From Candidatus Hydrogenedentota bacterium (GTDB taxonomy: Bacteria > Hydrogenedentota > Hydrogenedentia > Hydrogenedentales > JAEUWI01): DNA of 64,000 nt. Within the stretch, counting starts at the first letter, position 1, and every line of letters begins with the position of its first letter. This document shows, piece by piece, positions 26,081 to 27,830 of the stretch. Position numbers and translations under genes: made by a program. The notes under the pieces were generated by a model that had not been told where the DNA came from, did not search any database, and was given only the letters and a program-made list of their open reading frames with translations. The stretch is from assembly GCA_024280935.1 (NCBI GenBank), contig JAJRPE010000115.1, positions 12,256 through 76,255 of the forward strand. Reading direction: 5' to 3'.

Positions 26081-26159
26081 CGGGGTGTGGCCTAGCCCGG
26101 CTTAAGGCGCTCGCCTGGGGGGCGAGAGATCGGAGGTTCGAATCCTCTCACCCCGACCA
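26081..26159 (+). tRNA. tRNA-Pro (anticodon GGG)
   Basis: Acceptor stem CGGGGTG pairs with CACCCCG. Anticodon loop CTGGGGG. T-arm GGAGGTTCGAATCCTCT, then discriminator A and an encoded CCA. Confidence 0.85.
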
Positions 26160-27027
26160 TTTTTTGTATCACTTCCACCCGCTTCAGCATTGCGCTGTAG
26201 CGGGTGTTCTTGTTTTTGGGGGGCGCCTCATAGACTCGCTACGGTCCGGTTAGTCCTAACCAGATGCGGAAAAAAGATATGTCCGCTCGCCCCCTCCTGC
26301 ATCGTTTCATCGGGCAATAGCTGAGGCGCGGTTTTGGGGACCGCGTAGTCATCACTCCCCCCTCGCCGGAAAAGAGGAAAATAAAATTGCGCTGGGGCAA
26401 GCCATGGCATCAAGTCAAGAGCTGGGCGGAAACTTGCCAATATAAGTGACTGTCCCTATTTCCTTAGAAAAGTACGGGCAAAAAATCCCAGAAATTTTAT
26501 GAGGCAGGTGCTTTTTATGCCTGTGAGTGAAGCGAAGTCCCCCCTGGGGGGTACCTTGCCTTTAGTCCGCTTAGTTTTTGAAAATCCCCATGTATGTTTG
26601 TGCTGGTACTCGTGCTCTCTGTCTTGCTTATGCCTCGAAGGGCGAAAGGAGGGCGGGGCGGGAACCAGACATACCAACGGCCCTACGCCTCTGTTTCGTT
26701 GCATCATGGGAGGCTTCCGAAGCATTGACCATCGCTACACAGGCCATCACAAGGGTTCATCGCTTCAAATACCCCTCGTAACAGGCGCAAGAAGAGCCGG
26801 GAAGGCCAACCTACGCCCATAACACAGGCGCGATGATGTTGGTTTGTGTCGGCTAATGCGCCGTCCCATCCAGCATTAGGCACGGGGAGGACCGCATCCA
26901 ATGGGCTGATAGGGCTGGTCGGCCTGGATCGTCGCAACTACAGGGAAAATACTGCACGCGGGACCTGAAAACAGGGCTATTGTGCCATTTCTGGAAGCGG
27001 TGGCAATCGGATACGTACATCGCTCGC

Positions 27028-27056
27028 TTGACCTGCTATACCATATTTGGTATACT
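27028..27056 (+). promoter_or_regulatory. Sigma70-like promoter for higBA: TTGACC, 17-nt spacer, TATACT
   Basis: Near-consensus -35 and -10 elements sit 38 nt upstream of higB. The palindrome tatacca-tatt-tggtata (27037-27054) overlaps the -10, consistent with an antitoxin operator. Confidence 0.5.
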
Positions 27057-27093
27057 TCTCTCCGTAACAGCAAGACGCAGGGAAAGGCCCGTC

Positions 27094-27465
27094 ATGGTCA
27101 AGGAAAACGAAGGCAATCTTCCCATCAGGCGGCTTGTTTTTATGGGCGGTACGGCGAAGCAACTCCAGCGCTTTCCCGCAAGCGTCCGCGATGTCGTCGC
27201 CCAGGCGCTGTACAATGCCCGATACGGCACCAAGCACGAAAAGGCCAAGCCCCTGAAAGGCTTTGGCGGTGCAGGTGTCATTGAAATTGTGAGCCGGGCC
27301 GCCGATGGGACCTACCGCGTTGTCTATACCACCGTGATTGCCGGGCACGTGATCGTGCTCCATGCCTTTCAGAAGAAATCCACCAAGGGCATCGCAACTC
27401 CAAAAAAGGAAATTGACTTGGTTAAGTCCCGGCTGAAACAGGCACGGAAGGATTTCGGGAAATAG
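27094..27465 (+). CDS. higB: Type II toxin, RelE/ParE superfamily, HigB/Gp49-like (DUF891)
   Basis: Starts at the internal ATG 27094 (MVKENEGNLPIRRLVF...). HVIVLHAFQKKSTKGIATPKKEIDLVKSRLKQA matches the Gp49/HigB C-terminal motif. An XRE antitoxin gene follows. Confidence 0.7.
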   Translation: MVKENEGNLPIRRLVFMGGTAKQLQRFPASVRDVVAQALYNARYGTKHEKAKPLKGFGGAGVIEIVSRAADGTYRVVYTTVIAGHVIVLHAFQKKSTKGIATPKKEIDLVKSRLKQARKDFGK

Positions 27466-27506
27466 CCCCGAACGTGCCACCACGCGCAGAAAGGAGAACG
27501 TGTGCT

Positions 27507-27830
27507 ATGGATTCCCCCACGGAATACACCGAAAGTTGCGGCAACGTCTTTGCTGATCTTGGGCTGCCCAACCCAGAGCTGAGACAACTCAAGGCCGATG
27601 CCGCCCGCCAGATTCAGGAGGCCATCGAGCGCCATGGGATTACCCAGAAGGAAGCGGCGAAGCGCATGGGCATCGATAAGCAGAAGGTGTCCAACATCGT
27701 GTGCGGTCGTCTCAGCGGCTACACCCTGGACCGTCTCTTCCGCTGCCTGACCGCCATGGATGTGGACGTGGCCTTCAAGATGCGCCCCAAGCCCAAGAAA
27801 CGCGCCCACGCGGAACTACGGGCCGTGTAG
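27507..27830 (+). CDS. higA: HigA-like antitoxin, XRE-family HTH
   Basis: AAGGAG RBS 10 nt upstream of the ATG at 27507. ITQKEAAKRMGIDKQKVSNIVCGRLSGYTLDRLFRCLTAMDVDV is an XRE HTH. It lies downstream of the toxin, which is the HigBA gene order. Confidence 0.7.
   Translation: MDSPTEYTESCGNVFADLGLPNPELRQLKADAARQIQEAIERHGITQKEAAKRMGIDKQKVSNIVCGRLSGYTLDRLFRCLTAMDVDVAFKMRPKPKKRAHAELRAV

Follow-up and report, generated by a model that had tools for sequence, protein, structure and literature searches.

A probable autoregulated Gp49/HTH_37 toxin-antitoxin operon downstream of tRNA-Pro(GGG) in an uncultured Candidatus Hydrogenedentota genome

We describe, from a 64-kb stretch (hereafter the window) of the DNA of an uncultured Candidatus Hydrogenedentota bacterium, a pair of Gp49 and HTH_37 genes that very probably form a type II toxin-antitoxin operon, intact and autoregulated. 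What we read directly from the data is the gene content, the protein families, the predicted fold, the conserved catalytic positions, the promoter layout and the conservation of a palindrome in homologous loci. A first-pass annotation had placed a RelE-superfamily Gp49 toxin ahead of an XRE antitoxin, in that order and downstream of tRNA-Pro(GGG). Both parts of that placement are borne out, the gene pair by Pfam (PF05973, then PF13744 and HTH_3) and the tRNA by ARAGORN and Rfam. The features are collected in Table 1.

Table 1. Features of the operon and its surroundings, in window coordinates.
Feature	Coordinates	Strand	Basis or sequence
tRNA-Pro(GGG), CCA end encoded	26081..26159	+	ARAGORN and Rfam RF00005, 58.9 bits
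Stretch from tRNA-Pro to promoter, without a supported gene	26160..27027	.	868 nt; no Pfam or Rfam support
Hairpin resembling an intrinsic terminator, after tRNA-Pro	26176..26217	+	CACCCGCTTCAGC-attgc-GCTGTAGCGGGTG, then TTCTTGTTTTT
20-bp imperfect palindrome, copy 1	26245..26263	+	TCCGGTTAG-tc-CTAACCAGA
Sigma-70-type promoter TTGACC-17-TATACT, extended -10 TG	27028..27056	+	sequence match, 10/12
Candidate operator palindrome TATACCA-tatt-TGGTATA	27037..27054	.	perfect arms, recurring half-sites
Toxin gene, Gp49 (PF05973), RelE/ParE superfamily, 123 aa	27094..27465	+	Pfam, AF2, Foldseek
Antitoxin gene, HTH_37 (PF13744), XRE-type regulator, 107 aa	27507..27830	+	Pfam, PDB 2o38 match
20-bp imperfect palindrome, copy 2	27844..27862	+	TCCGGTTAG-a-CTAACCGAA

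The toxin ORF opens at ATG 27094, and its product matches PF05973 (Gp49) at E 5.7e-21 over profile positions 2-90 of 90 (74.8 bits, cutoff 23.9). It has 5845 homologues, and PF05973 is found in 120/120 among the matches listed. This is a RelE/ParE-superfamily model, as the earlier proposal implied, and a published classification likewise counts gp49/PF05973 among the RelE/ParE families, gives its gene order as toxin-first and its activity as ribosome-dependent mRNA degradation, and names M. tuberculosis HigB1 as a member (PMC11980606, Table 1). The earlier label "HigB-like" holds only broadly, i.e., for the Gp49 family to which HigB1 belongs, but not for PF05015, the family of Rts1 HigB. PF05015 was the accession originally suggested, and a Pfam scan at E <= 0.01 finds no match to it. 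Membership of the V. cholerae HigB2 family was likewise rejected: HigB2 is a lower-ranking structural match and sits in a different Pfam family (PF06296, not PF05973; PMC11980606). PADLOC returns no match for the toxin.

The AF2 model of the toxin (pLDDT 87.9, pTM 0.82) has a strand-helix-helix unit followed by four further strands and a long C-terminal helix (E13-16, H20-25, H29-43, four strands from 51 to 93, H104-121). Foldseek places it closest to M. tuberculosis HigB1 (7awk, E 6.6e-5, TM 0.61; also 7nbu, on the ribosome), and RelE toxins and HigB2 rank after that. HigB1 is a ribosome-dependent RNase, and a long C-terminal helix is typical of Gp49-like toxins (PMC9098466). At the level of sequence the toxin matches solved structures only weakly (E 0.08-0.17), so our mapping of catalytic residues rests on a low-scoring alignment together with the fold match. 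In that profile alignment (E 0.17), R75, F92 and K94 of the toxin align with R73, F90 and K92 of S. pneumoniae HigB, where R73 and K92 are equivalent to R77 and K95 of HigB1 and to R61 and R81 of RelE, and F90 to F93 of HigB1 (PMC9098466). All three toxin residues are invariant across 33 family members.

The antitoxin ORF opens at ATG 27507. Its product covers positions 1-79 of the 80 in PF13744 (E 1.9e-18, 66.4 bits, cutoff 27), scores 26.8 bits against HTH_3 and matches PDB entry 2o38 over its full length (E 2.7e-19); PADLOC finds generic HTH matches only. The N-terminal GNVFADLG segment is conserved, with N13, F15, D17 and L18 invariant. Toxin and antitoxin genes lie on the same strand, 41 nt apart, behind a single upstream promoter. 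An HTH_37 gene also lies 3' of the toxin in all homologous non-viral loci examined (L082, L083, L084, L088/L089, L090 and L091-L093) and in 46/71 viral loci. This pairing and its toxin-first order are already in the literature, having been documented in Tn3-family transposons (PMC7157771). Exact-protein look-ups found no record of the toxin, the antitoxin or the product of the next gene (ORF387; P0121).

A near-consensus promoter had been claimed for the pair, and we find the same one: a -35 element at 27028-27033 and a -10 element at 27051-27056, separated by 17 nt and agreeing with the consensus at ten of twelve positions, the consensus being that of sigma-70, which may not be Hydrogenedentota's own. 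Sites of this quality number six in the window, versus 3.2 in shuffled sequence. Two of the others are upstream of rplM and of an FMN riboswitch, i.e., in places where promoters are expected. The layout TTGACN-17-TATACT is also present at the homologous loci L082 and L083, and a related one is present at L084 and L108.

The perfect palindrome that had been reported over the -10 is there as well. The right arm shares 4 nt with the -10, and the spacer between -35 and -10 is taken up by the left arm and the centre. It occurs once in the window, and even with up to two mismatches any match at all appears in just 2 of 100 shuffles. It had been taken for an operator, and it behaves like one across homologous loci: half-sites of the form ACCA-N4-TGGT recur upstream of homologous toxins that are 49-67% identical. 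These half-sites are TATACCAtattTGGTATA in the window, TAGACCAaataTGGTATA in L084 (over TATACT), TAGACCAtataTGGTATA in L088, ATAGACCAtttaTGGTCTAT in L090 and, in two copies, GTATACCAtttcTGGTATAC plus ATACCAtaaaTGGTAT in L108. More generally, inverted repeats with perfect arms of at least 7 nt are found in 64% of 67 upstream regions from the family, versus 13% of controls. The non-viral loci contribute four upstream matches to the motif, and 60 distinct viral loci (332 kb) contain two within the 200 nt ahead of a toxin, each of them in L108, and only two outside such regions.

The palindrome is perfect in the window only. The same-species contig L001 carries G27049A, a change that disrupts the extended -10 TG as well as the right arm, and in the 92%-identical locus L082 the left arm is mismatched at two positions. 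L088 and L090 have their palindrome ahead of the -35, not over the -10. Conservation of the right arm could in part be plain conservation of the -10. The recurrence of the half-sites strongly suggests, at the level of sequence, that the palindrome is an operator, presumably for the HTH_37 antitoxin dimer or for the toxin-antitoxin complex.

These parts fit a simple mechanism. The single promoter would give a bicistronic mRNA encoding toxin and then antitoxin. The toxin would be a RelE-fold Gp49 endoribonuclease that cleaves mRNA in the ribosomal A site, as for M. tuberculosis HigB1, and the antitoxin an XRE-type HTH protein whose N-terminal GNVFADLG segment would neutralise it. An HTH dimer of the antitoxin may occupy the 18-bp palindrome, covering the -35/-10 spacer and the -10, and so block RNA polymerase and repress the operon. 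Were the antitoxin lost or titrated, free toxin would stop translation, which could serve addiction or stabilisation, or else abortive infection. We infer the RNase activity, the neutralisation and the DNA binding from what is known of the family.

The surroundings of the operon are variable. Upstream, the tRNA-Pro gene is followed by a terminator-like hairpin (inverted repeat I25, with 13-nt arms that are 92% complementary and a T-run 3' of it). A simple terminator scan did not report this hairpin; terminator hairpins of different sequence stand at the equivalent position in L085 and L087. Related lineages share the upstream genes and the tRNA, and their downstream DNA is unrelated. This is the case for L002/L086, L085 and L087 (80-87% nucleotide identity), where homology stops 3-6 nt past the tRNA 3' end, and for L029. 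A weak tblastx match between L029 and the DUF3880 gene of the window lies inside a Sel1-repeat protein gene, and we rejected it as spurious. The layout in L001 matches that of the window. The sister species L002 carries integrase, DUF1580 and PrimPol/D5 genes at the tRNA-Pro 3' end. These comparisons are evidence for a hotspot of recombination and integration at the 3' end of tRNA-Pro(GGG) in this Hydrogenedentota lineage, and the sister lineages do not have the toxin-antitoxin pair there.

The promoter and the two genes are a portable cassette of about 0.83 kb, which sits in a lineage-variable segment starting at the tRNA-Pro(GGG) 3' end. L082 shares 27015-27845 of the window at 92.5% nucleotide identity and has unrelated flanks, with homology beginning about 10 nt ahead of the -35 (~27019). 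The other end of this homology, at 27845, falls where palindrome copy 2 starts, as a boundary of the cassette might; since the L082 scaffold has a 10-N gap at that point, the junction is uninformative. L083 is a second paralogue in the same species. Past the antitoxin, the next gene is the convergent ORF387, which is unrelated to the module and belongs to a conserved Hydrogenedentota-specific family, and rplM-rpsI follow. ORF387 homologues in L165 and L167 are in unrelated contexts. An exact-protein look-up of MerR gave a 2.5-kb same-species contig as its only match.

The stretch between tRNA-Pro and the promoter had been described as about 870 bp free of ORFs. Its length (868 nt) and its lack of a supported gene stand, but it does hold chance ORFs, the longest of 107 aa. 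That ORF has its start inside a 33-nt stretch (26468-26500) which is deleted in the 99%-identical strain L001, and the spacer ORFs as a set have zero Pfam matches. The spacer is outside the cassette common to the window and L082. We rejected a hidden RNA: an Rfam scan of 25600-28100 at E <= 1 gives the tRNA and chance-level matches only, the one in the spacer being a sub-threshold L31-Firmicutes leader (20 bits versus a cutoff of 33.3, E 0.4), and the folding z-score of the spacer is -0.26. We also rejected a decayed gene or repeat: tblastx and blastn turned up nothing similar to the spacer, whether in 164 loci or in the remainder of the window, and a comparison with plasmids and the Pfam search came back empty as well.

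Could the pair be a degenerate one, in which the HTH_37 protein serves mainly for ordinary transcriptional control and its Gp49 partner is catalytically inert? This is what M. tuberculosis HigB2 and HigB3 would suggest as a precedent, since both are non-toxic and make up two of the three Gp49-type HigB proteins of that species (PMC9098466). The operator is also mutated in the nearest strain and mismatched in L082, which could mean relaxed selection. However, both ORFs are full length, and the toxin keeps all 21 of the 21 invariant family positions, including R75, F92, K94 and K95. Between the window and L082, 18 of 25 antitoxin substitutions are at third codon positions and the toxin differs at just 8 of 372 nt, both of which point to purifying selection. 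The C-terminal helix of the toxin is basic (K104, K105, K111, R113, K115, R118, K119), whereas it is acidic in the inactive M. tuberculosis paralogues (PMC9098466). We consequently regard a degenerate pair as quite improbable and favour an intact operon. How that operon came to lie beside the tRNA is a separate question. The first-pass annotation had hedged towards an islet remnant, an idea which is partly supported and unproven. In its classical form, the pair would be surviving cargo of a tRNA-integrated island or prophage whose integrase, attR and other genes were deleted and whose spacer decayed. In four related lineages synteny is lost right at the 3' end of the tRNA, and the element of the sister species (L002/L086) abuts the same tRNA. 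Such pairs often occur in viral contigs (71 loci) and are known from mobile elements, e.g., among the relaxase, integrase and transposase genes of L091 and in published transposons (PMC7157771), and an indel is tolerated in the spacer, which is non-coding. Against the remnant reading, the tRNA 3' end is unrepeated in the 64 kb (searched as a 23-mer with up to three mismatches and as a 15-mer with up to two), just as had been noted earlier. No integrase or other mobility remnant was detected in the spacer by Pfam on its ORFs or by tblastx against the L002 element and all other loci. GC content over 26000-28000 (0.51-0.58) does not deviate from that of the flanks (0.52-0.60), the tRNA keeps its own terminator, and the right-hand border is invisible because the ORF387 family is conserved and rplM-rpsI come next. 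An empty site, which had been proposed as a check across related tRNA-Pro loci, was not found: ORF387 homologues were checked and the right flank is kept in no relative. A classical island remnant is therefore possible but doubtful, its support being the breakpoint and the sister-species integration site, and the missing att site, integrase and composition shift counting against it.

A second account of the location invokes the paired palindromes. Within the 64 kb there are exactly two copies of the motif TCCGGTTAG-N1-2-CTAACC, in the same orientation and each preceded by CTACnnT, and two matches were seen in 0 of 100 shuffles. Copy 1 is 28 nt past the tRNA terminator, at a site which is occupied in the same way in L001, and copy 2 is 14 nt past the antitoxin stop codon; the latter is not a terminator because no T-run follows it. 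XerCD-dependent pdif modules carry toxin-antitoxin genes. By analogy, the 1.6-kb block 26245-27862 (770 nt of non-coding DNA, promoter, toxin and antitoxin) might be a miniature integrated element with the palindromes as recombination sites and the recombinase supplied in trans. The segment is indeed missing at tRNA-Pro in the sister lineages. However, the L082 cassette starts at ~27019 instead of at a palindrome and is without the 770-nt spacer, and no third copy of the motif exists among the 164 fetched loci, including the paralogous toxin-antitoxin locus L083. The arms are short (9 nt, one mismatch) and do not resemble dif or att cores, the neighbourhood has no recombinase, and the motif pattern was defined after being seen. 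We give this account very little credence. The specific claim that the two palindromes are recombination sites of an undescribed integrase-less toxin-antitoxin mini-module, which a host or element recombinase inserts at tRNA-Pro, is a long shot; if true, it would give Hydrogenedentota an equivalent of the pdif-type modules.

The portable Gp49/HTH_37 cassette is an ordinary module of a familiar kind and matters little past annotation, where its worth is as a well-delimited module, complete with promoter and candidate operator, in a poorly studied uncultured phylum. Two modest by-products may be of use: the evidence for a hotspot at tRNA-Pro(GGG), and the half-site TA(T/G)ACCA-N4-TGGT(A/C)TA, which one clade of HTH_37 antitoxins shares and whose right arm is often an extended -10 at the same time. 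This half-site would be an easy target for EMSA or reporter assays.

To our knowledge, no Gp49/HTH_37 member this close has been studied, including among the 59-68% identical neighbours. The nearest described counterparts are the toxin-antitoxin pairs of the Tn3-family transposons Tn4662a, TnDsu1 and TnPosp1, which have the same Pfam families, form a toxin-first bicistron and are associated with mobile or variable DNA (PMC7157771). Unlike those pairs, the window copy is chromosomal, has neither a resolvase nor a res site beside it, and comes with a promoter and candidate operator of its own.

Among systems with solved structures, M. tuberculosis HigB1 (Rv1955, the TAC toxin; 7awk, 7nbu) shares with the window toxin the Gp49 family, the RelE core and the long basic C-terminal helix, and the equivalents of its R77, F93 and K95 are conserved, although the two are only about 21% identical. 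In M. tuberculosis the system is tripartite, HigB1 being joined by a SecB-like chaperone and by the chaperone-addicted HigA1, whereas our module is without a third gene. S. pneumoniae HigBA (6af3, 6af4) is also toxin-first with an HTH antitoxin, and the C-terminal half of its toxin aligns to the family profile (LHxFxK...TPKxEI), but its sequence similarity to the window toxin is weak (E 0.17). HigBA of Rts1/Proteus vulgaris likewise has its genes in inverted order and an antitoxin of the XRE type, and its RelE-superfamily toxin is a ribosome-dependent RNase, as ours would be; its HigB belongs to PF05015, however, and ours to PF05973. For the antitoxin, the closest structure is Rhodopseudomonas palustris 2o38 (HTH_37), a structural-genomics entry for a hypothetical protein, whose likeness is one of sequence and extends over the full length, including both the GNVFADLG motif and the HTH.

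The gene pair downstream of tRNA-Pro(GGG) encodes a toxin followed by an antitoxin (see the table). The first-pass annotation had proposed PF05015 for the toxin, but that accession denotes another family, and a Pfam scan at E <= 0.01 did not hit it; Pfam instead places the protein in Gp49, and PF05973 is found in all of the best 120 of its 5845 homologues in a large protein collection. Gp49 is listed within the RelE/ParE superfamily; its toxin genes precede their antitoxin genes and its toxins degrade mRNA in a ribosome-dependent manner, Mycobacterium tuberculosis HigB1 being one of them (PMC11980606). 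HigB1 was shown to cleave mRNA at the ribosomal A site, and its long C-terminal helix is a typical feature of Gp49-like toxins (PMC9098466). A confident AlphaFold model of the toxin (pLDDT 87.9, from an alignment of 33 homologues) has HigB1 as its best solved-structure match (7awk; ribosome-bound in 7nbu); RelE toxins and HigB2 rank next. Residues R75, F92 and K94, all invariant in the toxin family alignment, correspond to HigB1 R77, F93 and K95, as read from a low-scoring profile alignment to Streptococcus pneumoniae HigB and published residue equivalences (PMC9098466).

Along its whole length, the antitoxin aligns with 2o38, a structural-genomics protein (E 2.7e-19). An HTH_37 gene lies 3' of the toxin in every non-viral locus collected; among the viral loci, this holds for 46 of 71. 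At one homologous locus (L088 6001-7017, also L089), a HicB-like antitoxin gene directly follows the Gp49-HTH_37 pair.

Features of the window
Feature	Position	Strand	Remarks
6S RNA	5697-5885	-	50.2 bits
FMN riboswitch	19016-19134	-	102.6 bits
Sigma-70-like promoter	19184	-	10/12 match; just upstream of FMN riboswitch
MerR-family (HspR/CarH-like) gene	25718-26065	+	directly upstream of tRNA-Pro(GGG)
tRNA-Pro(GGG)	26081-26159	+	Rfam 58.9 bits
Terminator-like hairpin with T-run	26176-26217		inverted repeat 3' of tRNA-Pro
20-bp imperfect palindrome, copy 1	26245-26263		TCCGGTTAG-tc-CTAACCAGA
Promoter	27028-27056		TTGACC-17-TATACT, extended -10 TG; consensus match
Perfect palindrome	27037-27054		TATACCA-tatt-TGGTATA; unique in window
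Toxin ORF	27094-27465		123 aa, ATG start; Gp49, PF05973, 74.8 bits
Antitoxin ORF	27507-27830		107 aa, ATG start; HTH_37, PF13744, 66.4 bits
20-bp imperfect palindrome, copy 2	27844-27862		TCCGGTTAG-a-CTAACCGAA
ORF387	27997-29160	-	387 aa, signal-peptide-like N-terminus, no Pfam match
Acido-Lenti-1 RNA motif	29418-29462	-	40.5 bits
Acido-Lenti-1 RNA motif	29578-29623	+	23.1 bits

The near-consensus promoter reported in the first pass is present. Sites this close to the consensus number only six in the 64-kb window, against 3.2 expected, and two of the other five stand where promoters are expected, ahead of rplM and of the FMN riboswitch, so a sigma-70-like consensus seems meaningful in this organism. 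Upstream of rplM-rpsI, the two Acido-Lenti-1 copies form a 33-nt inverted repeat in an ORF-poor, repeat-rich stretch (~29.2-30.6 kb).

The operator palindrome described in the first pass does overlap this promoter, extending over its spacer and the first four -10 bases. For comparison, we gathered non-viral and viral loci encoding homologous toxins. The same half-sites are seen ahead of several of these toxins: L084 has TAGACCA-aata-TGGTATA, placed over a TATACT -10, and L088 (TAGACCA-tata-TGGTATA) and L090 (ATAGACCA-ttta-TGGTCTAT) have theirs just upstream of the -35. A viral contig (L108) whose toxin is only 49% identical carries two tandem copies of the site, the first also with TGGTATACT. 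In 60 distinct viral loci (332 kb), two occurrences of ACCA-N4-TGGT, both from L108, lie at most 200 nt before a toxin, and two lie elsewhere; four non-viral loci also have upstream copies. On these counts the motif is concentrated upstream of toxin genes. Perfect inverted repeats with arms of at least 7 nt occur in 64% of 67 distinct family upstream regions versus 13% of control segments, most in a TATA...N...TATA form. Because half-sites recur upstream and inverted repeats are enriched family-wide, the palindrome has good comparative support as a candidate antitoxin operator overlapping the promoter. Among the closest copies, only the window's is perfect: in L001, a 99%-identical strain of the same species whose contig ends within the toxin gene, G27049A disrupts the right arm of the palindrome and with it the TG of the extended -10, and a metagenome scaffold (L082) has two left-arm mismatches. 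Right-arm conservation is partly conservation of the -10 itself.

On sequence comparison, the cassette is portable. L082 matches window 27015-27845 at 92.5% identity between unrelated flanks, and its homology begins ~10 nt before the -35, so the 868-nt spacer following tRNA-Pro lies outside the cassette. A second, paralogous Gp49/HTH_37 pair in the same species (L083 1093-1821, MAG GCA_021647925.1; toxin 60% identical) lies next to proS, with a peptidase-like gene on its other side, and the inverted repeat AATTTGGTGT ... ACACCAAATT flanks its promoter; another homologous pair (L091) is surrounded by relaxase, integrase and transposase genes.

The hairpin after tRNA-Pro looks like its terminator. 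Over the next 0.8 kb there are only chance ORFs, none matching Pfam, and the longest starts inside a 33-nt stretch (26468-26500) deleted in L001. An Rfam scan of the spacer found nothing above chance level, and its predicted folding is no more stable than that of shuffled controls (z = -0.26). Another hairpin spans the junction of the MerR-family gene end and the tRNA start.

The first-pass annotation also suggested an islet remnant. Flanking genes assign the window to Candidatus Hydrogenedentota, and the order SSF transporter, MerR-family regulator, tRNA-Pro(GGG) is conserved in relatives (the last two being kept in L002, L029, L085 and L087). In three lineages (L002/L086, L085 and L087; 80-87% nucleotide identity), similarity ends 3-6 nt past the tRNA and the DNA beyond differs in each. 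In a sister species (L002 10147-15456, identical in TARA contig L086), an integrative element with tyrosine integrase, DUF1580 and PrimPol/D5 helicase genes abuts the tRNA 3' end, making the site a real hotspot; the L002 contig stops before any attR could show. This variable DNA and the portable cassette give the islet idea partial support. The window has no repeat of the tRNA end (as the first pass had noted), no integrase remnant in the spacer and no GC shift. On the right, ORF387 is a member of a conserved family specific to the phylum (48 proteins; named members only from Hydrogenedentota or unclassified bacterial MAGs); its homologues sit in unrelated contexts, and no empty site could be defined through them. 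An islet remnant is a plausible hypothesis. The 20-bp palindromes, TCCGGTTAG-N1-2-CTAACC..., have no third copy in the window; the two are directly oriented and bracket the non-coding spacer and the TA module. They were rejected as terminators. Among the fetched loci they recur only at the same site in L001; L082 lacks the left copy and has a scaffold gap where the right one would lie. Recombination sites are a possible but tentative reading.

The original observation was correct and careful, and its object is ordinary: judged by its sequence, the cassette is a Gp49/HTH_37 type II toxin-antitoxin of a known kind, with a comparatively supported predicted operator, in a tRNA-adjacent variable region. 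The same pairing, Gp49 then HTH_37, is already known, for example from the toxin-antitoxin pairs of Tn3-family transposons (PMC7157771).
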